Shown here: piece after piece, positions 26,767 through 61,491 of the stretch
Position numbering within the stretch: the first letter of the stretch is position 1
Layout: every line of letters begins with the position of its first letter
Assembly: GCA_963707025.1 (NCBI GenBank)
Contig: CAVPOM010000006.1
Location: forward strand, 672,001-736,000
DNA: 64,000 nt
Source: an uncultured Verrucomicrobiae bacterium
GTDB lineage: Bacteria > Verrucomicrobiota > Verrucomicrobiia > Limisphaerales > Palsa-1400
Direction of reading: 5' to 3'
Program-made: the position numbers and the translations under genes
Notes under the pieces: generated by a model
Told to the model about the DNA's origin: nothing
Seen by the model: the letters and a program-made list of their open reading frames with translations, nothing else
Databases searched by the model: none

Positions 26767-26769
26767 GGT

Positions 26770-30362: not shown

Positions 30363-30365
30363 CTT

Positions 30366-30689: not shown

Positions 30690-30726
30690 ATGCCCGGAAG
30701 CATTTCGCCTTTTGGGTAACTTCTCC

Positions 30727-30762
30727 TAATCTTAATCTTAATCATAATCATAATCTTAATCT
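30727..30762 (+). repeat. Hexamer microsatellite (TAATCT/TAATCA)x6
   Basis: TAATCT TAATCT TAATCA TAATCA TAATCT TAATCT; overlaps the nuoJ stop codon. Confidence 0.9.
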
Positions 30763-33104: not shown

Positions 33105-34255
33105 TAGCGATCCACCTCCCCGAGCACAATATCAATGCTGCCCAGGATAATGACGACATCCGCGATGGTATGGCCGAGGCACATATCTTCCAGGACCGTC
33201 AGGTTGATAAGACTTGGAGGGCGGATGCGGTAACGCCAAGGCGTCGGCCCGCCGTCGCTGATGAGGTAAAAGCCCAGTTCGCCTTTGGGCGATTCGATCC
33301 GCCCGTAGGCTTCCCCGGTTTTGGGGCGCAGATTGCGCAGTTTGACTTTGGGATCCAGGATTGCTCCCGCGGGAATGTCGCGCAAGGCCTGGGCCAGAAT
33401 CTTGACCGATTCCCGCATTTCGAGAATCCGCACCATGTAACGATCGAAAACGTCCCCTTGCTGGCCGAGCGGGACGCGGAATTTGAAGCGGTCGTAAATC
33501 CCGTAGCGGTCCACTTTGCGAAGGTCGTAATTGACTCCGCTGGCCCGCAGCCCCGGGCCGGTCACGCCGGCATTGACCGCCAGGTCGCGCGGCAACACGC
33601 CCACGCCTTCACTGCGAGCGCGGAGAATTTCGTTTTCGCTCAGGAGAGCCTCGAATTGGTCGAGAAAGACGTCGAAATCCGCCGCGACCCTGGCGGCCTG
33701 TTCCTGCCAGCCGGGCGGGAGGTCGCAACGGCAGCCGCCGAAACGCAGGTAATTGCACATCATCCGCGAGCCGCTGAGCGCTTCGAAAAGGTCGAGGATT
33801 TTTTCCCGTTCGCGAAAGGCGTACATCAGGGGCGTGCCCAGGGCGCCCATGTCCTGCAAAACAAATCCCGCCAGGCAGGCGTGGTTGAACAGGCGGGTCA
33901 GTTCGGCGACAATGACCCGGATGTATTCGGCGCGCTCGGCCACCATCAATCCCGCCAGCTTCTCCACGCTCAGGACATAGGCCCAGTTGTTGGTCATCGA
34001 GCAGATGTAATCCAGCCGGTCGGTGTAGGGGATGGAGGCCAGGTAGCTGTTCTTCTCGGCGATTTTCTCGTGGTTGCGATGGAGGTAGCCGAAAACCGGC
34101 GTCAGTTTCACCACCGTTTCGCCATCCAGAACAACATTCATCCGAAAAACACCGTGAGTGGAGGGATGATGCGGCCCCATGGACACTTCGAGCAGGTCAT
34201 GGCCGTCAAATTTGGAGAGGGCCTGCCCCTGCGGCGCTGGCAGTGTGGCGATCAT
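33104..34255 (-). CDS. nuoD: NADH-quinone oxidoreductase subunit D
   Basis: [40 protein letters not shown]; no Ni-binding CxxC. Confidence 0.95.
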
Positions 34256-34827
34256 GGCTGGGCCTCCATTTGCTCGGCCGGCACGTAATCCTTGCGCATG
34301 GGATGATCGGCAAAGTTGTCCCACATCAGGATGCGGCGCAGATCGGGATGTCCCTCAAACTCGATGCCAAACAGATCAAAGATCTCCCGTTCCTGCAACT
34401 CGCAACTGCGCCAAACCGGCGTGAGGGAGGGCAGGGCGACGCGGTCGGTTCGATTGCCGGTGCGCAGCCGGATAATGAGCGGCCCCTGGCCGAGCGCCAT
34501 GGAATAGAGATGATAAACCGCTTCGAGGAAGGCGGGGGTCTTGCGTGCGGCCAGTTCCTCGGCTTCCTTTTCCACTCCGTCAATGATCTGCTTGACCTTG
34601 ACTTTCTCCTGGACGGTTTTTTCCGGCCAGTCCACGCCCGTGACGTTGGAGGCGTAGTCGAAGCGCAACTGCGGCTGGTCGCGCAAAAATTTTGCGATCT
34701 CCCGCGCCTGCCCGTGATCCAGGAGCAGGGAGGCTTGATTGGCCGGACTACCGTTGGGAATGACCTCCAGGCGCGCGCCCGGAAAAGCGGCGGCGATGCA
34801 GTCTTTGATTTGTTGCAGAGTTTGCAT
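34252..34827 (-). CDS. nuoC: NADH-quinone oxidoreductase subunit C
   Basis: [23 protein letters not shown]...HPMRKDY. Confidence 0.93.
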
Positions 34828-35441
34828 CAGGTGTTCCGGGCTTTGTCCAATTGCGGCCCCACCAAGTCATGCGGTCCGAATTGCGGCACGGGGAATTCGC
34901 CGGCGGCGCCCGCCTCCAGGTGGGGCGGACGATCCGGGCCCGTCAGGCGCTGGCGCGCTATTTTTTGTTGCAAAGTGATCAGCCCCTCCAGCAACGCCTC
35001 CGGCCGGGGCGGACAACCGGGGATATACACGTCCACCGGCAGATAGAGGTTTATCCCCCGCAGGACATTGTAGCCGTCGCGAAAGGGTCCGCCGCAAATG
35101 GCGCAGGCGCCCATGGCGATGACATATTTGGGCTCCGGCATCTGGTTGAACAGGCGCACGACTTGCGGGGCCATTTTCTTGGTGACGGTCCCGGAAACGA
35201 TCATCAGGTCCGCCTGCCGGGGGGAGGGCCGAAAGACCTCCGCGCCGAAGCGGGCCATGTCGAAGCGGGCCATGGAGGCGGCGATCATCTCAATGGCGCA
35301 GCAGGCCAGGCCGAACTGCAGCGGCCACAGGGAATTCTTCCGGCCCCAGTTGTAAAGCTCCTCCACCGTGGTGAGAACGACGCCTTGCTGCCTCAATCGG
35401 TTTTGTAGTTCCTGGTTCATGGGAGGCTTGTCCTCGTTCAT
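34827..35441 (-). CDS. nuoB: NADH-quinone oxidoreductase subunit B
   Basis: [34 protein letters not shown] 35441 overlaps the nuoA stop. Confidence 0.95.
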
Positions 35442-35809
35442 TTCCAGGCCAGAATCCCCTTGGCCCAGGCCCAGGCCAGTCCTTCCACCAGCAGGAGGAG
35501 GAAAATCAACATCGCCAGGCACGCGGCAAAGGGAAGGCCTTTGCAGGCCACGGCAAACGGCAGCAAGAAAATGGTTTCCACATCGAAGATCAGGAAAATG
35601 ATCCCATAGAGGTAGTATTCGGACTTGAATTGCACCCATCCGGTGGGTTGGACGTCCAGGCCGCATTCGTAAACGGCATTTTTGACCGCACCGGGCTTGC
35701 GCGGCGAGAAAGCGCGCGCCCAGAGCCAGGCGATGGCCAGCGGCGCCAGGGCGAACCCGACCGCCGCGGCGGCAAAAACGGCCAGAAACAAACAGGTATT
35801 CGTGCTCAT
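35438..35809 (-). CDS. nuoA: NADH-quinone oxidoreductase subunit A
   Basis: [15 protein letters not shown], three TM helices. Confidence 0.93.
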
Positions 35810-43618: not shown

Positions 43619-45743
43619 ATGCCCATCAAATCACCGCGCGCATTCCGCAAGGCGCCCCTCCGCTGGTGCCGGGCATGGCTGCTGGGCCTTTGCGCCGCGG
43701 GCGGCGGTCTTTGCGCGGCCGACACCAATGCCCCGCCGGCCATGACCCCGGAGCAGATGTTCGAGGGCGGCACCAACGCCTACAGCAACTGGATTGATTT
43801 CACGGCGGGTCAGGCCTTTGTCAGCGGCAACAGCGCGCAATTTCAGCAGCAGCATCAAATCCCCGCTGGAACGTTTGGCGGCATCGGCGATTTCCATTTC
43901 CAAACCGGCATCGCCACCAACACCACGATGACCCTGGACGGCCATGCCATCGCGGAGAACCACGACTACCAGCTCACTCTCGGCGTCCAGCGCGAGAAGG
44001 TCGGCTTCTTGCGCCTGTCCTACGAGCAATCGCGCACCTGGTCCGACGGGGACGGCGGGTTTTTCCCGGGATCAGGACAATACTACCCGGCGGCGGACAA
44101 TCCGCTCGGGCTGGATCGCGGCAAGTTGTCCCTGGAAGGCGGATGGACGCCGGAAACGGGGCCGAAAGGTGACCTTTAAATACACGCACTCGTTCCGCGA
44201 CGGCGCCGAAGGCTCCACCGAGTGGGGCTACGCCCATGAGCCGGGCATCCCTTATGCGCAGGGACTCAGCCCGACCTTGGAGCAGAACCACGAGCACAGC
44301 GACAGCTTTCAAGTGGACGTGGCCAATCACATCAAGGCCACGGATGTCGGCCTGGGCCTCCGTTATGAGACCGGACATCTGGATGATGCGATCAAAATAA
44401 CCGAGTACCCGGGCGAGCCGGTCCAGCAGAAGATCACCGACCGCCAGGGCACGAGCTACGACCTGTTCAGTGTCCACAGCTTCACCGAGACATGGGTCAG
44501 GACCAATGTCATGTTCTCCACCGGGTTCTCCTATTCCGGCGTGGGCAACGACTTTTCCGCCAGCCGGATATACGGCAATGACTTCAACGTCGGTTACGTC
44601 CCCAATGCCAACAGCGATTTCGGCTACTACGGACTGACCGGCACATCGCGTTTGCACGATTATGTATTTGACCTGAACCTGTTCTACAAACCGTCGCCCC
44701 ATTTCACGCTCGTCCCTTCTCTGCGGGTGGATCGGGAAGATTGGAACGCGAGCAGCAGCGGTCTTGAAACCTTTGAGTTGAACACGCCCGTGCCCTTCAC
44801 CACCGACAGCTCCCGCGGCCTGATTGATCTGCGCGAGCGGCTGGACCTGAATTACAACGGCCTGACCAATTGGGCCTTCTATGGACGCGGCGATTTCACC
44901 GAGGGCGACGGGAACTTGAACCAGAACGGCGGGTTGATCCCGGTGGCCGGCTACGGAATTCCAGGCGTGGAGGAGCAGACCGATGACCGCCGCTTCTTCC
45001 AAAAATACAGCGCGGGCGCCCGCTGGTATCCCTCGCGCGGCGTCACGCTGGACGTCGGCGGTTATTACAAAATCAACCACTACCACTATGGCATCGGCCT
45101 GGACAGCACAACCAACAGCCCCGGCAGCCCGAACGAATATCCCAATTTTCTGGCCATGCAGGATTTCGAGACCTATGACGCCAATTGCCGGCTGACCTTG
45201 AGGCCGTGGCAGAACGTGACCGCCATCAGCCGCTACGAGTTCCAACTATCCACCATTCACACCGAGCCGGACCCGGCCTCGGGCCTCTCCGAGGTCGAAG
45301 CATCGCGCATGACCAGCCATATCATCGCCCAGGATGTCAGTTGGATCCCGTGGAGCCGCCTCTCCCTCCAAGCCGGCTTGAACTACGTTTTGAGCGACAC
45401 CCACACGCCGGCCTCCGACCTCACCCAGGCCATCCTCACCGCGCAAAACAACTATTGGACGGTCAACTTTTCCTCGGGCCTGGTGCTGGATGACAAGACC
45501 GACCTCAACCTCAGCTACCTCTACTACCTTTCCGGCGATTACAGCAACAATTCCCCGCTGGGGGTGCCCTACGGCGCCGGCAGCGAGGAGCACGCCCTGA
45601 CGGCGACCTTGACCCGGCGCCTCAGCCAAAGCCTTCGTCTGGCCCTCAGGTATGGCTATTTCCGCTACAACGACGCGGCCTTTGGCGCAAACCGGGATTT
45701 CGGGGCGAACCTCATTTCCGCGAGCCTGCGCTACCGGTTTTGA
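43619..45743 (+). CDS. MtrB/PioB-like outer-membrane beta-barrel, split by a +1 frameshift near 44165
   Basis: Signal peptide, alternating aromatic beta-strands, terminal LRYRF beta-signal; ORFs 43619..44179 and 43944..45743 join as ETGPK/VTFKY on removing one base (707 aa). Confidence 0.8.
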
Positions 45744-45905: not shown

Positions 45906-46235
45906 ATGAAAATGAAAAAAATGCTCCTTACTTCCCTGGCCCTCGCGGCCACCACGGCGGCCGTGTCGGCTGCCGACGCTGCGGCGACTTGGGACAAGCA
46001 ATGCAAGGCCTGCCACGGCGTTGACGGAAAGGGCCAGACGGCGATGGGCAAGAAACTGGGTTTGAAGGATTTCACTGATGCCAAGTTCCAGGCCACTTTC
46101 ACCGATGTCCAGGCCACCAAGGCCATCAAGGAAGGCGTCAAGGACGGCGACAAGACCAAGATGAAAGCCGCCGAAGACGTGACCGACGCCGACATCAAGG
46201 CGCTCGTCGCCATGGTTCGCGCATTCAAGAAATAG
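45906..46235 (+). CDS. Periplasmic monoheme class I cytochrome c
   Basis: Signal peptide, CKACH, distal Met (KMK), Lys-rich. Confidence 0.92.
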   Translation: MKMKKMLLTSLALAATTAAVSAADAAATWDKQCKACHGVDGKGQTAMGKKLGLKDFTDAKFQATFTDVQATKAIKEGVKDGDKTKMKAAEDVTDADIKALVAMVRAFKK

Positions 46236-46384
46236 CCAGAACTGCGTCCGGACGGATACTGGCGGGTGTCCTGCCAGCTCCGTCCCCGTGGTCCTCCCCG
46301 GGGCCGGCGGGAAGCCAGGCCGGACTTTCACGGCCGTCGCCTCCCATGGAAGCCTCCGGCCCGGGTTGCACCACAAACCGCCTG

Positions 46385-47768
46385 ATGACAGCCAACGCGA
46401 AATCCGGAATCACCGTCGCAGTGATGTGTGCCGCCTTCTCCGCGCTGGCGCTGGCCTTTTTGTCGGATTCGGGCGGAACGCACCTCAACCGCCCCGCCAT
46501 TGCCCTGGTGGACACCAATTTCCTGGACACCTCAACCACCCGGCGGTCCTACGCGGACTTGGTTCGGGCGGGAGCGGACCTGTCGGATTTTGACTGCTAT
46601 GTTTGTCACGATAAGAAGGCCCCCCCGCCATTGCGCCTGGACGCCCACCAGAACATCATCGTCGCCACGGAGCATGTCGGTCCCACGACGTTTGCAGCGG
46701 ATGACCTGGGCACCAACGATTTGGCCGGGATCATCAAGCGATTAAGGGGGCACTCCGATCCAGTATCCGCTTTGCTGTGGCAGGGTTTGTCAAACTCGGA
46801 GCAATTACTGCTGGTGAATTACCAGCCTGCGGAACCCAGTTCCAAGCCGGCTCAAGATTTGGTGGTGGCAGCTCTTAACAAGATCATTGCAGGACCGTGT
46901 CTTTACGAGCGCGAACGATTCAAAGGGATCTTGTTGGGAGCGGAAACGATCGTCCATCTGGCGCAAAGCCGGACAGGCCCCAACCTGGCCCATCTCAACC
47001 GCCTGCTTCTGGAAGACGCCTTTCCACTGGAATTGTCCAGGAACCGGCATGCCGACATTGTGATGGGGCACGGAGAGCACGGCCGCAACAACAATTGCTT
47101 TAACTGCCACAACGAAACCAATCTCCTCCTGCTCCAGCCCAGGGACGGGCGGGAGTTGACCTTCGCCCAAAGCACCCAATTGTGCGGCAGTTGTCACGGG
47201 CCGACCAAGGCCGACTGGGACGCGGGCGCGCATGGCCGCACCAGCGGGGATTGGGATCGTCACTCCGGGCGCCAAGGGGTACGCTGCCTTTTCAGTTGAT
47301 GAAATCAAGGATTGGCCGGGTTTCGCAAAGAAGTTGAAGGACCATTCCGATGCGGTCTCCGCTTTTCTCTGGCAGAGATTGTCCAACCAGGACCAGGAAC
47401 TGCTGAAGAGCGACCGGCCGTCAGGGCCAGGCTCCAATCCAGCTCAAGTTGCCGTGGTTCAAGTCCTGAACAAGATCATCGGAGAACCGAGTATTGACCA
47501 GGACAAGCGGTTCCAAGGCATTTTGTTGCGTCCCGAAACAACCGACCTGAGGAAAGGATCTCCGGCTGGACCCGGCTTGAGCCGCCTCAACCGGTTGCTT
47601 CTCGAAGACGCGTATCCGCTGGAATTGTCCAGGGACATGGAACGCAAGGACTGCGTGAACTGCCACAACCCTCATTACCCCCACTTTCCTTCGCGAAAGC
47701 CCGCCCCCGGCCCGCACCCATTGAGGGAGATTGACACGGCCGCCGTGGCGCAGACCGGCCAGGAATGA
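46385..47768 (+). CDS. Tetraheme cytochrome c carrying two inserted copies of a ~120-aa domain; +1 frameshift near 47268
   Basis: N-terminal signal/TM; CYVCH, CFNCH, CGSCH, CVNCH; ORFs 46346..47299 and 47232..47768 join at WDRHSG/AKGY. Confidence 0.78.
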
Positions 47769-47769
47769 T

Positions 47770-48729
47770 ATGGACAAACCACCCTCATCTCCAGCCAGGA
47801 ATCCGGGGCCCCCGGCCAACGTGATGGGGCGGCGCAGCTTCCTGCGCACCTCCGCCGTGCTGACGACGGGGTTGGCCGCGCTGGCCGCCAGCCTGAAGCC
47901 GCTGCTGGAGATGAACGATTTTCCCACCATGGAGCGGTTCCTGCAAAAGTATTACAAGGAGATGACGCCGCAGGACATGGCCAAAGTTTTGAAGCGGATC
48001 GAGGACGAAGTGGAAGAGCAGTATCACTTGCGCCCCCATGTGCGGGATTTGAAGCCCATGGACGGGGTTGATTTCGTCTATTGCCTGAACTTGACCCGGT
48101 GCATCGGCTGCCGCAAATGCGTCCACGCCTGCGTGGCGGAGAACAACCAGTCGCGCGATCCCGAAATCCAATACATCCGCGTTCTGCGGCTGCCGGACGG
48201 CTCGCTGGATATTGACAAAGCCGACCACTTCTACGCGCCGGATTCGGTGCCGGAGAAGGGCTACTTTTACATGCCGGTGCAGTGCCAGCAATGCAGGAAT
48301 CCGCCCTGCGTCAAAGTTTGCCCGGTGCATGCGACGTGGCAGGAAGCCGACGGCATCACCGTGATAGATTACGACTGGTGCATTGGCTGTCGCTATTGCG
48401 AAGCGGCCTGCCCGTATTGGGCGCGGCGCTTTAACTTCACCAAGCCGTCCACCCTGCCCAAGGAACGCCTCAACCTCGATATGTCTTATCTGGGCAACCG
48501 CCCGCGGCGCCAGGGGGTCATGGAGAAATGCCACTTCTGCATCCAGCGCACGCGCGTCGGCCGCTATCCGGCCTGCGTGGAGGTCTGCCCCGCCGGCGCC
48601 CGCAAGTTCGGCAACATTCTCGACCCGGCCAGCGAGGTCTCCTACATCCTGAGAAGCAAACGTGTTTTTATTCAGCTCAAGGAGGAAATGGGCACCGCGC
48701 CGCGCTTCTTTTACTACTTCGACGTATGA
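47770..48729 (+). CDS. NrfC/DsrO-like 4Fe-4S protein with twin-arginine motif
   Basis: GRRSFL, CIGCRKCVHAC, CQQCRNPPCVKVCP, CIGCRYCEAACP, KCHFC...PACVEVCP. Confidence 0.92.
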   Translation: MDKPPSSPARNPGPPANVMGRRSFLRTSAVLTTGLAALAASLKPLLEMNDFPTMERFLQKYYKEMTPQDMAKVLKRIEDEVEEQYHLRPHVRDLKPMDGVDFVYCLNLTRCIGCRKCVHACVAENNQSRDPEIQYIRVLRLPDGSLDIDKADHFYAPDSVPEKGYFYMPVQCQQCRNPPCVKVCPVHATWQEADGITVIDYDWCIGCRYCEAACPYWARRFNFTKPSTLPKERLNLDMSYLGNRPRRQGVMEKCHFCIQRTRVGRYPACVEVCPAGARKFGNILDPASEVSYILRSKRVFIQLKEEMGTAPRFFYYFDV

Positions 48730-50465
48730 GGCGCGCCACTCGGAACTATTTTGTTTTTCTGCGGCGTTGCGCGGGCCTGGCCTTGGAGGGCGACTGGCGT
48801 TACTACGCGTGGATGGGCCTGCTCATCGTGTTCTGCCTGCTCGGCCTCAACGCTTATTGCCGGCAGTTTGCGCATGGCCTGATCGTCACCGGGATGAGCG
48901 ACGAAGTTTCCTGGGGCGTTTACATTGCCAACTTCACTTTCCTGGTCGGGGTGGCGGCGGCGGCCGTCATGATGGTCATCCCCGTTTATATCTATAAGAA
49001 CGAGGACCTGCATGACTTGGTCATCTTCGGAGAACTGCTCGCCGTGGCGGCGATCCTGATGTGCCTGGCCTTTGTCACCGTTGACCTGGGGCGGCCGGAT
49101 CGCTTCTGGCATCTGATCCCTGGAATCGGGCAATTCAACTTTCCCAAATCCATGCTCAGTTGGGACGTCCTGGTGCTCAACGGCTATCTCTTGCTCAACG
49201 TCCACATTTGCGGCTATCTGCTCTACTGTCGCTATCGCAAGGTTAAACCGGCCAAATGGTTTTACATTCCGTTTGTGTTCATCGCCATCGTCTGGGCTGT
49301 CTCCATCCACACCGTCACCGCCTTTCTCTATGTGGGTCTGGGCGGGCGGCCATTTTGGAATTCTTCCATCGTTGGACCCCGTTTCCTGGCCTCCGCCTTT
49401 ACCGCGGGTCCGGCTCTGATCATCCTGGCCATGCAGGTCGTGCGCCGCGTCACCTCTTCCTCTTACATGGCCGCCAGCCCGCCCGGCGAGGGCAGCGGTC
49501 CCATGCCGCAACCCAAACGCCGCGCCGCCACCATCGCCGACTTCGCTCTGCTGTGCCGCCATCTTCCCGAAATGGCCTCGGTGCCGGGCGAGGCCGGCCA
49601 GCGGGCTTTGGCGACGGCGGAAGTCCTGGAGGCCCAGCCTGGCGATGCGGTTTTGCGCCAGGGAGAAACGGAGGCTCGGGCCTTCTTTATCCTGCGCGGC
49701 ACGGTGGTGGTGATACGTCAGGAAGCCGGGCGTTTTCGGGTCACGCGCACGGCAGGACCGGGGGAACAGGTGGGAGAGGTTTCGGCTCTCCATGCCACCC
49801 CGCGCATGGCCAGCGCCATCGCCGAAGAACCCAGCCTGGTCTTGAGCTTCACCGCCGATGCCTTGCGCCTGCTCATGGAATCCACCCAGGTCAACAAGAT
49901 CGTCCGGTCCAGAATGTCCGAGCGGCTCCTCATCACCGATCGCGCCCTCATGACCCTGCGCAGCATCGTGCAGGTTTCCATGCTCATCAACGTCTTCTTG
50001 CTCGTCAACGAAGTCTTCAAGGAATTCTATTCGGGCAACCTGCATGACGAGTCCTCCAAATACCTCTTTGTCGGCCTGGACGGCCATCACGCCCTGGTGC
50101 CCTGGATTTGGACCGCCATCGCCTTCAACCTGACGGCCATGGTCCTGCTGGTCCTGCCGGTCAGCCGCAGCCTCAAATGGCTCAACCTGACCTGCGTCCT
50201 TTGTATTGTGGGCATCTGGATCGAAAAAGGCATGGGCTTGGTCATCCCCGGCTTCATCCCGACGCCCCTGGGCGAAATGATGGAATACCGGCCTTCCCTC
50301 AACGAGACCCTGGTTTGCTTTGGCATCTGGGCCTTCGGACTGCTCTGCTACACGGTTTTCCTCCGCATGTCCGTGCCCATTCTCCAGGGACGATTGTCCA
50401 GGGAGAACGAAGGCGCGCCGAGCCGGTCCATTCGGGCCGCCGTCCCCGCCTCCCCTCAGGGCTGA
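48726..50465 (+). CDS. NrfD/DsrP-like quinol-interacting membrane protein with inserted cNMP-binding domain
   Basis: TGMSDEVSWGVYIANFTF, DLGRPDRFWH, SMLSWD, SIHTVTAFL, WIEKG; internal GDAVLRQGE...FFILRG...GEQVGEVSAL...RMASA. Confidence 0.9.
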   Translation: MRRATRNYFVFLRRCAGLALEGDWRYYAWMGLLIVFCLLGLNAYCRQFAHGLIVTGMSDEVSWGVYIANFTFLVGVAAAAVMMVIPVYIYKNEDLHDLVIFGELLAVAAILMCLAFVTVDLGRPDRFWHLIPGIGQFNFPKSMLSWDVLVLNGYLLLNVHICGYLLYCRYRKVKPAKWFYIPFVFIAIVWAVSIHTVTAFLYVGLGGRPFWNSSIVGPRFLASAFTAGPALIILAMQVVRRVTSSSYMAASPPGEGSGPMPQPKRRAATIADFALLCRHLPEMASVPGEAGQRALATAEVLEAQPGDAVLRQGETEARAFFILRGTVVVIRQEAGRFRVTRTAGPGEQVGEVSALHATPRMASAIAEEPSLVLSFTADALRLLMESTQVNKIVRSRMSERLLITDRALMTLRSIVQVSMLINVFLLVNEVFKEFYSGNLHDESSKYLFVGLDGHHALVPWIWTAIAFNLTAMVLLVLPVSRSLKWLNLTCVLCIVGIWIEKGMGLVIPGFIPTPLGEMMEYRPSLNETLVCFGIWAFGLLCYTVFLRMSVPILQGRLSRENEGAPSRSIRAAVPASPQG

Positions 50466-50476
50466 CCACCGCTCCG

Positions 50477-50917
50477 ATGTCAAGAAGACTTACAGCCGAT
50501 GACGCCAGGCAATCGTTGAGCGCCCATGTCGCGGGCAGAGGCGCCGAAATATTTGAAAAATATGGACCGCGCATCGGCTGGAACGAGTTGCTGCGCATTC
50601 TGGAAGACCGCGCCTGCGTCCGCTACCCCTGCAAGGCCGCCTTCGACGCCGCCCCGCTGCAACCGGGAGAGTGCGCCTATGCCAGGGCAAATAGCGTCCA
50701 GCCCGAAGACGGATTTGTGATTTACATCCATCCTCTCTTCATGACGCAGATGGACCGGGTGGCGCACCTGGCGCTCTATCAGTTGGCCGTTGTCAACTAT
50801 GGGGAGTTCGCGTCCCCGGATGACGCGGAGGCTTTTGGCGCGGCCGCCCTGGGCATTTCCCGGGAACAGTACTATCAGGGCCTTTGTCAAATGGCCGGTT
50901 TGCTCGAAGAACAGTAA
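50477..50917 (+). CDS. Hypothetical protein
   Basis: Codon-typical ORF from ATG 50477 directly after the NrfD-like gene (VRYP...YQLAVVNYGEFAS). Confidence 0.65.
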   Translation: MSRRLTADDARQSLSAHVAGRGAEIFEKYGPRIGWNELLRILEDRACVRYPCKAAFDAAPLQPGECAYARANSVQPEDGFVIYIHPLFMTQMDRVAHLALYQLAVVNYGEFASPDDAEAFGAAALGISREQYYQGLCQMAGLLEEQ

Positions 50918-53285: not shown

Positions 53286-53747
53286 ATGTCGCGCTTGCTT
53301 AAAATGCCGCCGCAACTGGTCCGCCTGGTGCTGCTGACCATTGGGATCGTGTGCGTTTATTTCGTCGCGCGCTACTTCCTGGCGCCCCCGTCCTTTGGGC
53401 AATACGGCCATTACCGGGCGGCCGCGTTGCAGGAGATCGCCGCGCGCCAGCCCTATTGGGCCGGCAAGGCGGCGTGCGTGGAATGCCATGCCGCCCATGC
53501 GGAGAAGCTGGCCAAAGGCGAGCACAAGAACCTTTCGTGCGAAACCTGCCACGGCCCCGGCCAGGCGCATGTGGCCAATCCCCCCGAGAAACTGCCCAAG
53601 CTCGACATGAGCCTTTGCGTGCGGTGCCATGAGGCCAGCCCGTCCAAACCGAAATGGCTCCATCAAATCAACAGCCACGACCATTACACCGGGAATCTTT
53701 GCACCGAGTGCCATGTTCCCCACCAACCCAAGGAGGTTCCACCATGA
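53286..53747 (+). CDS. Membrane-anchored tetraheme cytochrome c
   Basis: N-terminal TM; CVECH, CETCH, CVRCH, CTECH. Confidence 0.9.
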   Translation: MSRLLKMPPQLVRLVLLTIGIVCVYFVARYFLAPPSFGQYGHYRAAALQEIAARQPYWAGKAACVECHAAHAEKLAKGEHKNLSCETCHGPGQAHVANPPEKLPKLDMSLCVRCHEASPSKPKWLHQINSHDHYTGNLCTECHVPHQPKEVPP

Positions 53748-54550
53748 GCGAGCAGATCACCCGGCGCACCATCCTGAAGAATCTGGCTGGAATAGTCGGA
53801 GGTATTCTTGCCTTGCCGGCCGCCCGCACCTGCAAAGCGGGGGTGCAAAACCTTCTGGCCTCATCTCCCGCCCCGTCCGGCTACGATCCGTTCGAGCACA
53901 AATGGCTGATGGCGCTGGACGTGGACCGGTGCATCGGCTGCGGCCGTTGCGTGGAAGCTTGCTGCGAGGAGAACGGGGTGCCGGAAGGCCACTGGCGCAC
54001 CTGGATTGAACGCTACGTCATCACCAGGCCCAAGGCAGGCTCCGGCGAGACCCGCGGGGCAACGTTTGTGGACTCACCGGATGCCGGGAGATATGGCTTT
54101 CCGCAGTTGCTCATTCCAAAGGAGGACATTCTCAAGTCGTTCTTTGTCCCCAAACTCTGCAACCTGTGCGAGCATTCGCCCTGCACCCAGGTCTGCCCGG
54201 TTGGGGCCACCTTCGACGCCCCGGACGGCGCGGTGCTGGTGGACAAGAATTATTGCATCGGCTGCGGTTTTTGCATCCAGGCCTGCCCGTACGGATGCCG
54301 CTTTTTTAATCCGCAAACCCACACCGCCGACAAATGCAACCTGTGCTACCATCGGATTACCCGCGGCCTCAAGCCCGCCTGCGTGGAGATTTGTCCCTCG
54401 CAGGCCCGGGTTTTCGGCGATCTGAAACACCCCGTGCCGGACGATCCGCTGCAAAAATTCATCAACGAGAACAAGGTGGAAGAGTTGAAAAAAAGCCTGG
54501 GCACCGGTCCGCGCGTGGTCTATGCGGGCCTGGACGAGGAGGTCCGATAA
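53744..54550 (+). CDS. NrfC-like 4Fe-4S protein with twin-arginine motif
   Basis: TRRTIL, CIGCGRCVEAC, CNLCEHSPCTQVCP, CIGCGFCIQACP, KCNLC...PACVEICP. Confidence 0.92.
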   Translation: MSEQITRRTILKNLAGIVGGILALPAARTCKAGVQNLLASSPAPSGYDPFEHKWLMALDVDRCIGCGRCVEACCEENGVPEGHWRTWIERYVITRPKAGSGETRGATFVDSPDAGRYGFPQLLIPKEDILKSFFVPKLCNLCEHSPCTQVCPVGATFDAPDGAVLVDKNYCIGCGFCIQACPYGCRFFNPQTHTADKCNLCYHRITRGLKPACVEICPSQARVFGDLKHPVPDDPLQKFINENKVEELKKSLGTGPRVVYAGLDEEVR

Positions 54551-55809
54551 TGAGCGCCGCCATTCTCACCAACGTCGTGGAGGCGCTCCCGCAGTTCCAA
54601 GGCTACGTCTATCCCAACGAACGGACGCTGCATCCCCTGTGGAGTGTGCTCATCGTGGTCTATCCCTACATCACCGGTTTGGTGGCGGGGGCTTTCATCA
54701 TGGCCTCGCTGGTGCGGGTTTTCAAAGTCAAGGCGCTGGAGCCGATTTACCGGCTGGCCCTGTTGACGGCGCTGGCCTTCATGCTCTGCGCCACCTTGCC
54801 CCTGCTGTTTCACCTCGGCCATCCGGAACGCTGCTTTGAAATCATGATGACGCCGCACTTCAGTTCTCCCATGGCCATGTTCGGCTTCGTCTATGCCTGG
54901 TACCTGATGGCCGTGCTCCTGCTCGAACTTTGGTTTGACTACCGCCGGGACTTTGTCGCCTGGTCCAAGACGGCGGCCGGTTTGCGCGGCATCCTCTACC
55001 GCGCCTTCACCTTGGGAGTGACCGACCTGTCCGAGCCGGCGCTGCGGCTGGATGCCCGCATGGGCCGGATCATTTCCATCGTCGGCATTCCGTCGGCCTT
55101 TCTCTTGCACGGTTATGTCGGTTTCATTTTCGGCTCGATCAAGGCCAATCCCTGGTGGGGCAACCCGCTGATGCCGATTATTTTCATTCTTTCCGCCGTG
55201 GTGTCGGGCATGGCGCTGTGCGTGTTCGCCTACATGTTCCTGTGCTGGGCGCGACGCATCACGGCAGACATGCGGTGCCTGGATTTGATGATCAGCTTCC
55301 TTTTTTATGCCGTGGTGCTGGATGCGACCATCGAAGGGCTGGACTGGCTGCACCGGCTTTATTCGGCGGAGGAGGGGATTGAAGTGCTCAAGTCGGTGGC
55401 GTCGAGCAAGCTGTTTTACACGCTGCTCATCGGGCAGGCCTGCCTGGGCACGCTGGTGCCGCTCCTGCTCCTGGGAACCATGCAACTCATCCGCAAAAAA
55501 GTCGCGGAGTTGAATCGCCGCCGCGTCTATTTCTCCAGCACGGTGCTCATCCTGATCGGCGTGCTGGCCATGCGGTGGAATGTGGTCATCGGCGGCCAGC
55601 TTTTTTCCAAGAGCCTGCGCGGTTTCATGAGCTACAAAATGGAGTTCGCCGGCCACGAAGGCTGGTGGCTTTCCCTCGCGCTGCTCGCCCTTCCTTTTGT
55701 CATTTTGACGGTGTTCATCAAGTATTTTTTGGACCGGGACCTGCCCACGCTGGAGAACGTGGTTCCGGGCGCGCCGCCGCGGGCGGGTTCGCCCCCGGCG
55801 CCGGCTTGA
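54550..55809 (+). CDS. NrfD-like membrane protein
   Basis: YPYITGLVAG, HLGHPER, LHGYVGFIFG, MRWNVVIGGQ. Confidence 0.9.
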   Translation: MSAAILTNVVEALPQFQGYVYPNERTLHPLWSVLIVVYPYITGLVAGAFIMASLVRVFKVKALEPIYRLALLTALAFMLCATLPLLFHLGHPERCFEIMMTPHFSSPMAMFGFVYAWYLMAVLLLELWFDYRRDFVAWSKTAAGLRGILYRAFTLGVTDLSEPALRLDARMGRIISIVGIPSAFLLHGYVGFIFGSIKANPWWGNPLMPIIFILSAVVSGMALCVFAYMFLCWARRITADMRCLDLMISFLFYAVVLDATIEGLDWLHRLYSAEEGIEVLKSVASSKLFYTLLIGQACLGTLVPLLLLGTMQLIRKKVAELNRRRVYFSSTVLILIGVLAMRWNVVIGGQLFSKSLRGFMSYKMEFAGHEGWWLSLALLALPFVILTVFIKYFLDRDLPTLENVVPGAPPRAGSPPAPA

Positions 55810-55903
55810 GATTTGGCCGCGTGTGGCGCGGCCTCGGTTTTCCCGGCGGGTTGGAGTTCGCCGCCGGGAAACACGCAAAAAAACCCGGACTCCCGGAGGA
55901 ACT

Positions 55904-56233
55904 ATGAAAAGAAAGATAATAATTGCAGCGGTCATCGGCATGATGGCGGCCGGGGTGGCTTACGCGCAGGACGACAGCAAGGCGTTGTACGAAAAGAGCT
56001 GCCAAAAGTGCCATGGCGCGGACGGCAAGGGCCAGGTCACAATGGGCAAGAAGCTCGGGTGCAAAGATTACAGCGACGCCAAGGTCCAGGATGCGTTGAA
56101 GGACGACGTGGCGCTCAAGTCCATCAAGGAAGGACTGAAGAAGGGTGACACGACGTTGATGAAGCCCGCCGAGGGCCTCACCGACAACCAGATCAAGGGG
56201 CTTGTCAAGTACATGAGGACCTTCAAGAAGTAA
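55904..56233 (+). CDS. Periplasmic monoheme cytochrome c, paralog of 45906
   Basis: Signal peptide, CQKCHGADGKGQ-x-x-MGKKLG, LMKP. Confidence 0.92.
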   Translation: MKRKIIIAAVIGMMAAGVAYAQDDSKALYEKSCQKCHGADGKGQVTMGKKLGCKDYSDAKVQDALKDDVALKSIKEGLKKGDTTLMKPAEGLTDNQIKGLVKYMRTFKK

Positions 56234-56305
56234 AAGCGCCCAGGGCGTGAATCTGTGTTGGAGCAGCCCCGCAATGGGTTGCTCCAACACTCCCGCCCCC
56301 CAACC

Positions 56306-57790
56306 ATGGACACACTTCCTCCAACCGGCCCGGCTCGCCTGCCTTCCCTGTTCCGCAACTGGGTTTCCCTGGCGGGGATGGTGCTCATGGCTTCGAGCAT
56401 TTTCGCCTTTCTCCTCTTGTTCTTCCTGGACACGATGGCGTATTCCTCCAATCCGTACGTGGGGATCCTGACGTTCTTTGTGGCGCCGGCCTTCTTTTTC
56501 GCGGGGCTGATCGTGTTTCTTTTTGGAGCGTGGCGCTGGCGGAGGAAGATGGCCAAAGCCAATGGCGGCGCGGGCGCGTTGCGCATCAACATAGACTTCT
56601 CGCGCCCCCACGACCGGCGGGTGCTGGCCTTCTTTGTTCCAGCCAGCGCGGGCTTCCTCCTCCTCACGGCGATGGGCAGCTACCACACCTATCATTTCAC
56701 CGAATCGGTGCAGTTTTGCGGGGAGTCCTGCCATACGGTCATGAAGCCGGAGCTGATCAGCTACCTCCATTCGCCGCACGCCAGGGTGGCCTGCGCGGAA
56801 TGCCACATCGGCGCGGGGGCCACCTGGTACGTGCGCTCAAAATTGTCTGGCACCTACCAGGTTTATGCCACCCTGGCCCACAAATACCCCACGCCCATTC
56901 CCACCCCGGTCAAGAATCTGCGGCCCGCCCAGGAAACCTGCGAGCAATGCCATTGGCCCAAGAAGTTTGTCGGCAACCTGGACCGCACCCTCTCTTATTA
57001 TCTCCCGGACCAGTCCAATTCCCTCTACACCGTCCGCCTCCTGCTCAAAGTCGGCGGCGGGGACCCGACGCATGGGCCGCTGGGCGGCATTCATTGGCAC
57101 ATGAACGTGGCCAACAAAATCGAATACATCGCCACCGATGAGGCCCGCCAAAAAATCCCCTGGGTGCGCATGACCGACCCCCAGGGCGTGGTGACCGAGT
57201 ATCGGACCAAGGAATTCACCAATGACGTCAGCCAGGCGCCCAAGCGCAGGATGGACTGCATGGATTGCCACAACCGGCCCGCCCACAAGTTCCAGTCCCC
57301 GGAAAGCGCGGTCAACCTGGCCATGTCGCTCAGCAACATTGATATTTCGCTGCCCTACATCAAGACCAACGCCGTCGGCGTCCTCTGCCGCCCCTACACC
57401 AACCAAACCGAAGGCCTGGAAGGCATTGCCACCACCTTGTCGGAACGATTCCCCAAAGATCCGCGCATCCGCGGGACGATCGCAGCGGTGCAGGATATTT
57501 ACACGAACAATTTCTTCCCGGAAATGAAAGCCAGTTGGCGCGACTACCCGGACAACATCGGGCACAAGGACTTTCCCGGCTGCTTCCGCTGCCATGATGG
57601 CAAGCACATTTCCAGCGCCGGCCGCGACATGATCAAGGCCAACGACTGCAACGCCTGCCATCTCATTTTGGCCCAGGGCAGCGGCGCGCAGTTGAACCAA
57701 GTCAACGCGGAGGGCCAGAAGTTCGCCCATCCTTTCGATGAATATGATCCAGCTTACCAATGCACCGACTGCCATAACGGCGGCTTGTAA
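56306..57790 (+). CDS. ImcH-like inner-membrane heptaheme cytochrome (NapC/NirT-related)
   Basis: Three N-terminal TM helices with NPYVGILT; CGESCH, CAECH, CEQCH, CMDCH, CFRCH, CNACH, CTDCH; GIHWH. Confidence 0.82.
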   Translation: MDTLPPTGPARLPSLFRNWVSLAGMVLMASSIFAFLLLFFLDTMAYSSNPYVGILTFFVAPAFFFAGLIVFLFGAWRWRRKMAKANGGAGALRINIDFSRPHDRRVLAFFVPASAGFLLLTAMGSYHTYHFTESVQFCGESCHTVMKPELISYLHSPHARVACAECHIGAGATWYVRSKLSGTYQVYATLAHKYPTPIPTPVKNLRPAQETCEQCHWPKKFVGNLDRTLSYYLPDQSNSLYTVRLLLKVGGGDPTHGPLGGIHWHMNVANKIEYIATDEARQKIPWVRMTDPQGVVTEYRTKEFTNDVSQAPKRRMDCMDCHNRPAHKFQSPESAVNLAMSLSNIDISLPYIKTNAVGVLCRPYTNQTEGLEGIATTLSERFPKDPRIRGTIAAVQDIYTNNFFPEMKASWRDYPDNIGHKDFPGCFRCHDGKHISSAGRDMIKANDCNACHLILAQGSGAQLNQVNAEGQKFAHPFDEYDPAYQCTDCHNGGL

Positions 57791-59901
57791 GGCGGCGCGC
57801 CGGGCCATTTGCGCGCTCGCCTTCCTGTCCTTGCTCCAGGCGGGCCGCCTCGCCGCGCACATTATCTCCAACCAGGATTGCCTGGAGTGCCACCGTGATC
57901 CCACCACCGCGCGCACCGTCGCCGGGAAATCCGTGGCGCTGGCGGTATTCGACACCAATGCCTTTCAGAAGTCCGTGCATGCCCGGCTCAATTGCACCGA
58001 CTGCCACAACACCGTCAAAGAGCTGGTGCATCCGGGCGGACTGCCCCCCGCCCAATGCGCCTCGTGCCATTCTTCCGAGACGGCCCAATACGTGGGCAGC
58101 ATCCACGGCATGAGCAAGGCCCGGGGGGCCTCCGCGGCCGCCGGGTGCGCGGACTGCCACGGCACCCACGGCATCGTTTCTGTCAAGAATGTAGATTCGC
58201 CCGTTTTCAAGCTCAACCTGTCGGTCACCTGCGCCAAATGCCATAGTGAACCCGGGCTGACCAGCCGAGTACCGGATGAAGTATCCGCTGGTGGCCAGCC
58301 AGTACACCGACAGCATCCACGGGCGGGCGCTGATGAAAATGGGATTGATCGTGGCCCCTTCGTGCAACGATTGCCACGGCACGCACGACATCGGGCGGAG
58401 CGTGGACCGCAGTTCGCCCATCAACCACGCCAACGTCGCCGCCACCTGCGGCAAATGCCATCTGGGGATCGAAAAAACCTACAACGCCAGCATCCACGGG
58501 CAGCTTCTGGCCAAGGGCGGGCAAAACGGCCCGGTCTGCGTGGATTGCCATTCCGCCCATCAAATCACCGAGCCGGACGGCAGCAATTTCAAGGCGGCCA
58601 GCGACGAGAAATGCGGCAGTTGCCACCAGGACCGGCTGGCGCATTATCGCGACACCTACCACGGCAAGGCGATGTTGCTGGGCCGGCCCAACCTCGCCCC
58701 CGAAGTGGCGGCGTGCTACGACTGCCACGGCCATCACGACGTGCTGCCGCGGTCCGATCCGGCCTCGCATCTTTCCAAGGCCAATATCGTGGCCACCTGC
58801 CAGAAATGCCATCCGGGCGCCAACGCCAATTTTGCCAAATACATCCCCCACGCCAATCCGCTCGACGCCCAGCACTATCCGCAGTTGCATTGGACCTTCT
58901 TGGCGATGACGGCGCTGTTGATCGGCGTCTTTGCCTTCTTCGGCGCGCATACCGGCCTGTGGCTCTTCCGCTCCGGTTACCTATGGGCGCACGACTCGAA
59001 AACTTTCCGCGAAGCCAAGATCAAAACCCAACAAAGCGATGAGTGGTTCACCCGCTTCCCGCCCTTTGAACGGCTGCTGCACTTTCTGGTGGTGACCAGT
59101 TTTCTCCTGCTGGTCCTGACCGGCATGCCGCTCAAGTTTTACTATACCAGTTGGGCCAAAGTCATCTTCGCGTTGCTGGGCGGCCCGGAAACGGCCCGCT
59201 TCCTTCACCGCACTGGCGCGGTCATTACCTTCCTCTATTTCGGTCTGCACCTGGCCAAGCTGCTCCTTAGGTCCTGGCAGGCCCGCGGCCGCTTCCGCGG
59301 CGGCGACTGGCACTCCAAGTGGACCCGGCTGAAATGGGCGCTGTTCGGTCCCGACTCGATGATTCCAACCTGGCAGGATGTGAAGGAATTCATGGCGCAC
59401 CAGAAATGGTTTTTCGGCCAGGGGCCCAAGCCGCAATTCGACCGGTGGACTTACTGGGAGAAGTTCGATTACTTCGCCGTGTTCTGGGGGGTCTTTATCA
59501 TTGGAGCGTCGGGGTTGGTCATGTGGTTCCCGCAGTTCTTTTCCTATTTTCTGCCGGGCTGGACCATTAACATCGCGCTCATCATTCATTCCGACGAAGC
59601 CCTCTTGGCGGCGGGTTTCATCTTCACGATTCACTTCTTCAACACCCATTTTCGCCTGGAGAAATTTCCCATGGACACCGTGATTTTTTCCGGCCGCATT
59701 TCCAAAACCGAAATGCTGCATGAACGCCGGCGCTGGTACGAGCGGCTCCTGGCCGCCGGACGCCTGAACGATCTGCGTGTCAAAGACGAATGGGAACGCT
59801 GGAAAGCCATCGCCCGCGCCTTCGGCTTCCTCTTTTTCGGCGCCGGCATCGTCCTGCTGGTTTTGATCATCTACGCCATGGTCACGCGCCTGGCGCACTG
59901 A
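57738..59901 (+). CDS. CbcL-like multiheme c / di-heme b cytochrome, +1 frameshift near 58262
   Basis: Eleven CxxCH over the two joined frames; cytochrome-b part with ERLLH, LHR, EKFDYFAVFWG, IHSDEALLA, IHFF. Confidence 0.82.
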
Positions 59902-59984: not shown

Positions 59985-60560
59985 GCATTCGATTGATTGT
60001 AACCCTGGCCGGGGCCTGTTATGCGGGCTGCCTCACGGCTTGCCGGGAGGGGCGGCGGCTGGTCAAGGACATGCTGCCCCGCCTGAAGGAGGCTCGGGAG
60101 GCGGCCGCCCATGCGCGGCGGCGGGCGGGCCTCGGCGGTGTCAAATCTAAATTTGAACGGTCCGGCTGCGCCGGGAAAATGGAGTATTGGCCGGTGGTCT
60201 GGGGCGCCGTCATCATGGGGGCGGCCGGCCTGATGATCTGGTCCAAAAGCCAGGGTGACCCAGTTTCTGCCCCGACGGGCGGTGGATGTGGCGGCGACCA
60301 ATCACTATTACGAGGCAATCCTGGCTTGCCTGGCCATTTTAGTATGGCATCTTTGTCACGTCATCTTTGATCCGGACGTCCATCCTTGGAACCGGGAGGT
60401 TCTAGACGGACGCGTCTCGCGGGAATGGCTGGAAGAGGAACACCGGTTGAACCGGGCCCTGGCCGGCGGCAAACCGGAAGCGGCCGCCCGCCGGGCGGCG
60501 GCGCCCAACGCGACCGCCCGCGCCGGCGAAGATGGAGGAACGAAACGTGCGCAGCTTTGA
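59985..60560 (+). pseudogene. Degenerate fragment of a second cytochrome-b (FdnI/CbcL-like) membrane domain
   Basis: KMEYWPVVWGAVIMG...W then, after a frame change near 60250, HYYEAILACLAILVWH...FDPDV...EEEH; no 5' half, several degenerate residues. Confidence 0.7.
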
Positions 60561-61491
60561 GAGCCTGAGCGAACGCGAGGTTCTTTCCCTGGCCATCGCG
60601 CTGGAGGAAGAGGACGCCAAGGTCTATGACAACTTCGCCGAAGGGTTGCGCGAAAGCTATCCGGCGCAGGCCGCCAAGTTCGATGAAATGCGCCGGGACG
60701 AGGACGGGCATCGCCACCGGCTGCTCGAACTTTTCCAAAGCCGTTTTGGCGGCCACCTTCCCTTGGTGCGGCGCGAGGACGTGCGCGGATTCATCAAGCG
60801 GCGCCCCATCTGGCTGGAACGGCCGCTCAGTTTGAAGGCGGCGCGAAAGCGGGCCGAATTGATGGAGTTGGAAACGGAACGCTTTTATGAGGTCTCGGCC
60901 CGCCGCGCGACCGATGCCGGCATCCGGCAATTGCTGGGGGATTTGGCGGCCGAGGAGCGCCATCACGCCCTGGCGGCGGAGGCGCTCGGTCAGACCCAGT
61001 TGAGCGACGCCGAAAGAGCCCATGAAAAACGGCGTTTTGCCTTGCAGGTCATCCAACCGGGCCTGGCCGGGCTGATGGACGGCTCGGTCTCAACCCTGGC
61101 TCCGTTGTTTGCCGCCAGATTTGCCACGGGCAACCATTGGGAAACTTTTCTGGTCGGTCTCGCCGCCAGCCTTGGGGCGGGCATCAGCATGGGGTTTGCC
61201 GAAGCGCTGTCAGACGACGGAACGCTCACCGGGCGCGGACATCCCTGGGCGCGCGGCTGGGTCTGCGGGGCCATGACCGCCGCGGGCGGATTGGGGCACA
61301 CACTGCCGTTTTTGATTCATGATATCAACTTTGCCACGGCCCTGGCGCTGGCGGTGGTCTGCGTGGAACTGGGGGTGATCGCCTGGATCCGCCACAAGTA
61401 CATGGACTCGCCGTGGACGGCCGCGACCCTTCAGGTCGTGCTCGGCGGCGTGCTGGTTTTTCTGGTGGGCATGCTCATCGGCAGCTCTTGA
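60532..61491 (+). CDS. mbfA: Erythrin-VIT1 iron exporter
   Basis: Rubrerythrin-like domain with E-x-x-H pairs (EDGH, EERH) plus QPGLAGLMDGSVSTLAP and GAGISMGFAEALSDDG. Confidence 0.92.
   Translation: MEERNVRSFESLSEREVLSLAIALEEEDAKVYDNFAEGLRESYPAQAAKFDEMRRDEDGHRHRLLELFQSRFGGHLPLVRREDVRGFIKRRPIWLERPLSLKAARKRAELMELETERFYEVSARRATDAGIRQLLGDLAAEERHHALAAEALGQTQLSDAERAHEKRRFALQVIQPGLAGLMDGSVSTLAPLFAARFATGNHWETFLVGLAASLGAGISMGFAEALSDDGTLTGRGHPWARGWVCGAMTAAGGLGHTLPFLIHDINFATALALAVVCVELGVIAWIRHKYMDSPWTAATLQVVLGGVLVFLVGMLIGSS

Follow-up and report, generated by a model that had tools for sequence, protein, structure and literature searches.

The 64,000-nucleotide stretch analysed here (the window) belongs to contig CAVPOM010000006.1 of an uncultured Verrucomicrobiae bacterium and carries, at 48726..50465 on the + strand, the gene of a DsrP-like membrane subunit of the NrfD family that is interrupted by a cyclic nucleotide-binding (CNB) domain. 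The protein has 579 amino acids and 10 transmembrane (TM) helices. Its gene is preceded by those of a monohaem cytochrome c (45906..46235, +), of a membrane-anchored tetrahaem cytochrome c (46346..47768, +), which is found here in two frames (3+1 CXXCH) and holds two copies of an unrelated ~115-residue module, and of a periplasmic DsrO-like 4Fe-4S subunit with a twin-arginine motif (47770..48729, +; 168 bits to DsrO, below the cut-off of 200). The stop of the latter gene overlaps the start of the NrfD gene. Downstream lies the gene of a 146-residue protein of no known family, a candidate cytoplasmic fourth subunit (50477..50917, +).

The host subunit and its inserted domain

The 579-residue product passes the NCBIfam DsrP model (NF045798; 411.9 bits, cut-off 350) and matches Pfam NrfD at residues 54-244 (127 bits), as anticipated by an earlier, sequence-only reading of this DNA. 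Hydropathy delineates ten TM segments, six amino-terminal and four carboxyl-terminal of the insert, and the AlphaFold model of the full-length protein agrees with this organization (mean predicted local distance difference test, pLDDT, 86.4). The first membrane half (TM1-6; 48726..49454, +) features a predicted periplasm-side quinol site composed of D120, S142 and D147, and the second half (TM7-10; 49932..50465, +) has K501 at a proposed proton-gate position. These residues align, via the insertion-less orthologue L022, with H139, S164, D169 and R395 of ActC, of which the first three form the quinol site and R395 is the proposed proton gate (PMC8076601). All four are invariant in 87/87 insert-bearing and 117/117 close insertion-less aligned sequences, position 501 being Lys as in DsrP1 versus Arg395 in ActC. 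The NrfD family is described as consisting of anchor subunits that lack cofactors, bind quinone and possibly translocate protons (PMC8076601).

The insert is bounded by ...MQVVRRVT (residues 236-243) and ITDRAL (403-408), with 159 residues between T243 and I403 (nucleotides 49455-49931). The sequence-only reading had recognized a CNB-type insertion at this place, which stands, and had started it at 49456 with about 158 extra residues, a span that was off by one base and one residue. The insert contains the motifs GDAVLRQGE, FFILRGTV and GEQVGEVSALHATPRMASA, and Pfam cNMP_binding (PF00027) matches residues 302-386 (57.9 bits, E 1e-15, cut-off 27.5), so that the beta-roll pattern of CRP-type domains read from the letters has its counterpart in a family match and in a predicted CNB fold. 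Close insertion-less orthologues have three residues at the site, the short loop taken beforehand to be the usual state, and the net gain is thus 156 residues. The G+C content of the insert is 67% against 58-60% in its flanks; at third codon positions it is 78%, inside the flank range of 77-83%, and the insert therefore does not have the look of a recent foreign acquisition.

The domain is preceded by a variable linker, disordered as judged by pLDDT and fast-evolving (residues 244-265; 49455..49520, +; pLDDT below 50 at residues 249-259). It opens with a helical N3A/alphaA part (266-298; 49521..49619, +) of three helices in both the full-length and the isolated-domain models, whose residues R266, A268, D272, L276 and L280 are kept in 76-80 of 80 loci, the best 80 of 171 relatives retained from a GTDB scan with the insert alignment. 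The beta-roll follows (299-373; 49620..49844, +), supported by the PF00027 match and by structural matches, with an Arg-rich beta4-beta5 hairpin (R331, R336, R338, R341) and the phosphate-binding cassette G350-E351-x-S-A-L-xxx-P-R360-x-A-S-A (49773..49817, +). A hinge helix and a CRP-like C-helix (R396, M397, R400, L401; 49845..49931, +) continue straight into the start of TM7, I403-T404-D405. Modelled in isolation, the insert (pLDDT 88) has the N3A helices, beta-roll, hinge and C-helix all present, in keeping with the eight-stranded beta-roll and helical subdomain of CNB domains, and its structural matches are domains of CRP/FNR, PKG, PKA, Rv0998, SthK and MloK1 (Z 15.9-17.6). The best Z, 17.6, is to a CRP/FNR protein and that to PKG CNB domains is 16.9, values that do not separate the types; a search of the ESM Atlas with the insert returned only generic CNB clusters.

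The TM6-TM7 loop that carries the insert is predicted to be cytoplasmic, with the amino terminus inside, because three lines of evidence agree. Alternating loops have a mean of 17.1 Lys plus Arg on the side of the insert and 6.4 on the opposite side. The alignment to ActC, both termini of which lie on the N-side (PMC8076601), is in register with the membrane part. The iron-sulfur (FeS) partner is of the twin-arginine translocation type, an RRxF motif being found in 73/73 orthologues. The cytoplasmic location proposed earlier from the basic residues around the loop is upheld by these data.

Conservation was counted in the 80 loci and in a second set of 138 score-ranked sequences. The search patterns behind the 80-locus set included G350, E351 and the C-helix's end, so that only the conservation of R338, R341 and R360 is informative there. 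R360 is found in 80/80 loci and 137/138 score-ranked sequences, R341 in 80/80 and 136/138, and R338 in 80/80 and 138/138; G350 and E351 (138/138 each) and R400 of the C-helix (138/138) are invariant in the score-ranked set. The cassette Gly-Glu and Arg are thus retained, as had been noticed. The ratio of nonsynonymous to synonymous substitution rates (dN/dS) among 11 close genomes is 0.035 and 0.067 for the membrane halves, 0.21 for the CNB domain, 0.084 for hinge plus C-helix and 0.51 for the linker. A wider estimate from 163 of 3160 pairs (54 of the 80 loci; pairs not independent) gives 0.11 for the membrane part, 0.18 for the cassette, the lowest value within the insert, 0.27 for the beta-roll, 0.31 for hinge plus C-helix, 0.43 for N3A and 0.77 for the linker. 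Judged by these rates (beta-roll 0.19-0.27 versus 0.51-0.77 in the adjacent linker), the insert domain is under purifying selection.

The genes around the subunit form a recurrent module. At loci with room for them, the FeS gene lies upstream in 68/68 and the tetrahaem cytochrome gene in 66/68, with four CXXCH motifs in 64/68 orthologues of this cytochrome; a monohaem cytochrome is found at most 2.6 kb upstream in 37/68. The 146-residue gene is directly downstream in 69/73 loci with room and is also present near insertion-less copies. Its product gave no Pfam or NCBIfam match and has no obvious signal peptide or TM helix; in the ESM Atlas it falls in unnamed clusters, with a weak likeness (at most 0.82) to zincin-like peptidase clusters, the HExxH motif being absent. 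Pfam and NCBIfam searches of the window place no dsrM, dsrK or dsrJ in the operon, and searches of the whole genome (88% complete) gave no match for dsrA and dsrM and only 39 bits versus 400 for dsrK. A separate locus elsewhere in the genome has ActB/C/D/E/F-like genes of alternative complex III type (read by eye from translations).

The gene set of tetrahaem cytochrome, DsrO-like and DsrP-like proteins, together with intact quinol-site residues, fits the quinol:cytochrome oxidoreductase put forward in the sequence-only reading. The host is proposed to be the quinol-site subunit of a quinol:cytochrome c oxidoreductase made of three parts, a tetrahaem cytochrome, a DsrO-like FeS protein and a DsrP-like protein, without DsrMK. 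This complex would most likely feed periplasmic and outer-membrane cytochromes.

Distribution and history of the insert

Both domains are present in all 120 best protein matches listed (8000 candidates scored; 77-91% identity), one additional match being the window's own fragment at 100%. An alignment that crosses both junctions is found in 19/60 related genomes; by rank, insert-bearing matches occur in 5/5 genomes of the genus, 12/30 of the family and 7/30 of other families of the order. In 80/80 GTDB loci a single open frame holds the insert together with the two membrane halves; the record titles of these loci are mostly of Verrucomicrobiota (Limisphaerales, Opitutaceae, Akkermansiaceae, Luteolibacter, Chthoniobacterales), with a few of other or no names. 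Insert-bearing Verrucomicrobia live in soil, peat and freshwater. Contigs of relatives at ~86% identity from two independent sequencing runs (X3 and X4) span both junctions without gaps and support the insert across them. A contig of run X2 is an insertion-less allele, its flanks joined with 19 letters in between; the run closest to the window's strain (X1) gave no junction-spanning contig among the matches listed.

Insertion-less alleles are found in closely related genomes. In genome G010 the gene order is the same, the insert is absent and the two membrane halves are 84% and 79% identical to those of the window. A search with the G010 protein retrieved 120 proteins at 82-92% identity, 119 of them without a cNMP match; the site has exactly three residues in 116, an insert in one and could not be parsed in three. 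The three-residue loop is typically x-Tyr-Arg/Ser/His. More distant homologues likewise have a short loop with Tyr, and the short loop is therefore probably ancestral. The second NrfD gene of the window (54550-55809) lacks the insertion, as stated in the sequence-only reading (no cNMP match in Pfam). It was rejected as a control, being too distant (25% identity over 84 residues to the 48726-50465 protein); the fitting controls are syntenic insertion-less orthologues such as that of G010.

A FastTree phylogeny of the membrane part (232 of 252 sequences, duplicates and gappy ones excluded) has insert-bearing and insertion-less states mixed, with 7 changes. A quick search with an outgroup (58 sequences) also gives 7 changes and does not reject a single insert clade (approximately unbiased test, p-AU 0.116). 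A careful ingroup tree of 51 sequences, from which seven were excluded for long branches or outgroup status, has at least 4 state changes and rejects a single split (p-AU 0.012, bootstrap not fully settled). Separate trees, built on short alignments, give 11 changes for the N half, 6 for the flanks and 13 for the C half. The junction-side residues 239, 404, 406 and 409 differ most between the two states. The history of the insert is moderately resolved, gain and loss being indistinguishable; we infer from the trees one old insertion, probably followed by losses or by recombinational exchange of the cassette plus flanks.

Several relatives have unusual arrangements. In one genome (locus L027, G059:C22) two insert-bearing modules that have diverged from each other lie ~7 kb apart on opposite strands, and a paralogue without the insert is encoded on a separate contig. 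Among DsrP-type relatives, P0129, which passes the DsrP cut-off, ends in a pair of CBS domains, P0133 in a multihaem cytochrome, and P0135 in a long region without Pfam match that reads like an outer-membrane beta protein. The CBS pair of P0129 suggests a second recruitment of a nucleotide sensor.

Predicted ligand control and its alternatives

The reading that we favour, with a confidence slightly better than even, is that a purine cyclic nucleotide modulates the activity or assembly of the host complex. A purine 3',5'-cyclic nucleotide would bind at G350, E351 and R360 and be capped by R400. On binding, the C-helix, whose end is the start of TM7, would become ordered or shift, and the second four-helix bundle, which holds K501, would be moved through TM7. 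The outcome would be a tuned quinol turnover, proton coupling or assembly. With several quinol-oxidising branches in parallel, the cell could thus switch one of them without having to express new genes. Modulation is a safer term than the gating of the sequence-only reading because close orthologues work without the domain and two canonical sensor features deviate. Ligand binding, its coupling to TM7 and the direction of the effect are, like the electron acceptor, predictions that we draw from the sequence, fold, topology, conservation and gene context of the subunit.

Supply would favour cAMP and the beta5 Arg cGMP. The sole class III cyclase of the genome is CHASE2-linked and has Lys and Thr at its motif positions, which we take to be of adenylate type, ATP-specifying. 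R341 is aligned with R473 of PfPKG, the beta5 Arg of the cGMP-selective PKG CNB-B/D type, which contacts guanine (PMC4412288); 0/6 other CNB domains of this genome have Arg at this position. The Thr that follows the cassette Arg (T493 in PfPKG) is absent, this protein having Met. Specificity for cGMP, suggested by R341 and by Thr361 in the score-ranked set (91/138), was weakened by the presence of this Thr in only 20/80 GTDB loci and was not retained.

Coupling to the membrane part is suggested by the C-helix. The family profile alignment to E. coli CRP ends at CRP residue 128, equivalent to D405, an end-point that places R400 near CRP Arg123 and T404-D405 near Thr127-Ser128, the region where cAMP triggers a coil-to-helix change in CRP (PMC11253593). 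T404 is Thr in 86/87 insert-bearing versus 41/117 close insertion-less sequences. In the full-length model the helix is broken at 399-402 and in the isolated-domain model it extends to residue 410, both with low confidence. Taken together, the CRP register and the models are suggestive of an ordering of the C-helix into TM7. Bd1971 offers a precedent, a bacterial CNB domain that exerts its switch on an enzyme across 40 angstroms (PMC6717892), and fusions of CNB domains to soluble pyridine-nucleotide oxidoreductases have been listed (PMC2246266).

A number of observations weigh against the predicted modulation by a purine cyclic nucleotide. The domain is less constrained than the membrane part (dN/dS 0.035-0.11 in the latter). 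The position of PKA Gly169 between beta2 and beta3 (here E316, mapped by counting in the PKA alignment) is Asp/Glu in 60/80 loci and 121/138 score-ranked sequences, and Gly in only 3 and 7; this Gly co-evolves with the cassette Arg in cAMP binders, and two Arg-keeping families also lack it (PMC2246266). Directly behind the cassette Arg, most known binders of cyclic nucleotides have Ala/Ser/Thr; the residue that follows R360 is variable in the 80 loci (M26, V20, T20, A5, E5 and L3 among the commonest). At the TM7 junction, the CRP register is off by one residue in the structural alignment, pLDDT is below 50, and the T404 count is partly circular, IT being present in one search pattern. The insert is absent from close syntenic orthologues, which makes the domain dispensable, and phylum-wide sampling found the insert allele in only 3/300 genomes (only 13 candidates scored per genome). 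The cluster representative P0122 carries a decayed CNB insert, with the cassette Glu replaced by Arg, the cassette Arg gone and the C-helix shortened. Co-occurrence with a cyclase was discarded as evidence, since 60/61 genomes in the order have one irrespective of the insert, which gives no discrimination; searches of the genome, which is 88% complete, turned up neither CpdA nor a class II phosphodiesterase.

The complex could instead be regulated in the same way by another ligand, such as cUMP or cCMP, a nucleoside, a nucleotide in linear form or a compound of more anionic character. The lost beta2-beta3 Gly, the variable residue after R360 and the near-invariant cluster R331/R336/R338/R341 all point that way. 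CNB folds are known to bind cUMP (PycTIR, Z 15.4 to the insert) and nucleosides (PMC10959531), and the related DsrP-type P0129 has a CBS pair instead. The insert nevertheless keeps the cassette Gly-Glu, Ala-Leu and Arg and the C-helix Arg, the set used for a 3',5'-cyclic ribose-phosphate, and a different ligand appears not very probable.

The conserved Arg residues of the hairpin and C-helix could also serve a ligand-independent docking or assembly module that stabilises the complex by contacting a partner, the membrane surface or itself. The 146-residue neighbour is a candidate partner, as it follows in nearly all loci and is in frame with the subunit at one locus (L044), and the DsrMKJOP decamer is held by DsrP-DsrP contacts (bioRxiv 10.64898/2026.08.25.746951). 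This gene is nonetheless found beside insertion-less copies too, the single L044 fusion may be a sequence error, and in the wider set constraint within the insert is strongest at the ligand-facing cassette; docking alone is improbable.

The tether to the membrane part at both ends would also allow a signal to run outward, with the redox or proton-motive state altering the affinity or exposure of the domain and the complex acting as a redox-dependent sink or relay for cyclic nucleotides. Allosteric coupling works in both directions. Such a role seems quite improbable, given that Pfam detects no attached output domain and that no signalling gene was identified in the conserved neighbours, i.e. 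those matching window genes.

We regard as very improbable that the domain is a tolerated passenger, inserted long ago into a loop that permits this and kept folded only to spare the membrane protein. Its dispensability in close orthologues, the at least 4 state changes on the ingroup tree, the decayed copy P0122 and the tolerance of this lineage for other in-frame insertions (the ~115-residue module, at 12 places) would suit a passenger. A passenger would, however, lose its pocket residues first, and therefore the near-invariance of E351, R360, R341 and R400 in a domain that averages 38% divergence counts against it. An assembly chimera or mis-called gene, to which the frameshifts in three neighbouring genes of this assembly might point, has a negligible probability and is ruled out by the recurrence of the architecture (120/120 best protein matches listed, 19/60 relatives, 80/80 GTDB loci) and by the contigs that span both junctions gap-free.

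A bolder form of modulation by a cyclic nucleotide is entertained only tentatively. It pictures a quinol oxidoreductase gated by a second messenger, in which the ligand would zip the C-helix into TM7 and switch the flow of electrons or protons through the branch that supplies extracellular electron transfer. The sensor would be an exchangeable cassette gained, lost or swapped by recombination, and a CBS sensor would have been recruited independently in related DsrP-type subunits.

Both parts of the protein are known families and both domains are annotated in databases; their combination is undescribed in the literature searched. No account of an NrfD or DsrP protein with a CNB domain was found there (most subscription journals and supplements lay outside the search), in line with the impression of the sequence-only reading that the architecture had not been characterised. 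Nor did this literature yield a regulatory domain on any NrfD-family subunit. One paper, in its available text, deals with a CNB gene that stands by itself within a hydrogenase 3b cluster. Bacterial cAMP is known to act on respiration mainly via transcription. The insert suggests that a second messenger may act directly on a respiratory enzyme, a regulatory logic that would be undescribed if ligand binding holds. A sensor built into a transmembrane helix of the subunit with the quinol site would place a respiratory branch under post-translational control, in bacteria that abound in peat, soil and lakes and for which respiration of humic substances or iron has been proposed. Alleles that have and lack the domain form a natural pair, ~80% identical, on which this could readily be tested, and an NrfD protein under ligand control could help to decide whether NrfD subunits couple quinol oxidation to conformational proton transport.

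Genomic surroundings and relation to known systems

The module is part of a larger cytochrome cluster. Upstream, the segment 37711..45743 (+) codes multihaem cytochromes with 9, 9 and 7 CXXCH motifs, a DUF7088 protein and, split over two frames, a probable porin of the outer membrane, named so from its position and sequence pattern, with no family match. Parallel quinol-linked routes are encoded downstream (53286..59901, +): a second cytochrome/FeS/NrfD module, which lacks the insert, a NapC/NirT cytochrome similar to ImcH and a cytochrome b/multihaem protein similar to CbcL, the ImcH and CbcL labels resting on the descriptions in PMC6295460 and not on family matches. Porin-like and DmsE-like genes each occur in 18/80 loci (flanks of at most 8 kb), and a link of the module to extracellular electron transfer appears to be frequent. 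Verrucomicrobial porin-multihaem clusters were proposed to serve humic or iron respiration (PMC5615132), and iron reduction was shown for Limisphaera strains (PMC13608581).

Three cluster genes are split over two frames: those of the probable porin (43619-45743), of the tetrahaem cytochrome (46346-47768) and of the CbcL-like protein (57738-59901). Their orthologues in relatives are mostly whole, and a single gap sets the tetrahaem cytochrome gene apart from the corresponding stretch of a near-identical contig; the splits are probably assembly indels. The ~115-residue module, which has no Pfam match, occupies 46691-47041 and 47289-47633 inside the tetrahaem cytochrome gene. It occurs at 12 places in the genome, once within the CHASE2 region of the cyclase. 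Only 1/68 orthologous cytochromes has it, relatives' contigs skip these stretches, and the module has the appearance of a mobile protein insert that this lineage carries in frame.

Other segments of the window code different functions. A complex I-like cluster with four antiporter-type subunits (23768-35666, -) lies on the opposite strand, immediately upstream of the cytochrome genes. A pair of genes for an N6-methyltransferase (Eco57I-type) and a PLD/SNF2-helicase (13199-19788, +) resembles a defence locus. Right behind the cytochrome cluster is a rubrerythrin-VIT1 fusion (60532-61491, +), presumably an iron-export type protein.

The top structural matches of the membrane part are to ActC of alternative complex III (TM-score 0.66-0.72 by target length), although the subunit has no ActA/B/D/E/F gene beside it. 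With DsrP of DsrMKJOP it shares the NF045798 assignment, the ten TM helices, the Asp/Ser residues of the quinol site and the DsrP1-type Lys; it differs in having a tetrahaem cytochrome partner instead of DsrJ and 156 extra cytoplasmic residues. Cryo-electron microscopy of DsrMKJOP locates the quinol in a cofactor-free DsrP, near the periplasm and beside a DsrO cluster (bioRxiv 10.64898/2026.08.25.746951).

The best match in organisation is the DsrOhPh-tetrahaem module, likened here by gene content and not by sequence orthology, in which a tetrahaem cytochrome and homologues of DsrO and DsrP likewise occur apart from dsrMK. This module, DsrOhPhCyt, earlier a candidate alternative complex III, is found in cable bacteria, other Desulfobulbales and some Beta- and Gammaproteobacteria (PMC13047784; bioRxiv 10.64898/2026.08.25.746951). 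It is present also in organisms without sulfur metabolism, and electron transfer from quinol to periplasmic cytochromes is only proposed for it (PMC13047784); the available text of these two sources makes no mention of a cyclic-nucleotide domain. The module of the window differs by its place in a probable porin-cytochrome cluster and by the 146-residue gene that follows. The cluster itself resembles the verrucomicrobial porin clusters (PMC5615132) and Geobacter ImcH/CbcL (PMC6295460) in combining a probable porin, multihaem cytochromes and ImcH-/CbcL-like genes on one strand; no NrfD subunit or cyclic nucleotide was found mentioned in the available text of either paper.

The inserted domain is like CRP/FNR- and PKG-type CNB domains in its fold, in the Gly-Glu...Arg of the cassette, in a C-helix Arg that probably corresponds to that of CRP and in a beta5 Arg as in PKG CNB-B/D. 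It differs from the CNB systems named here in having no helix-turn-helix, kinase, EAL or pore domain and in the change of the beta2-beta3 Gly to Asp/Glu. In Rv0998/Pat, Bd1971, MloK1 and SthK the CNB domain is terminal, whereas here it interrupts a polytopic redox protein to which it is tethered at both ends.

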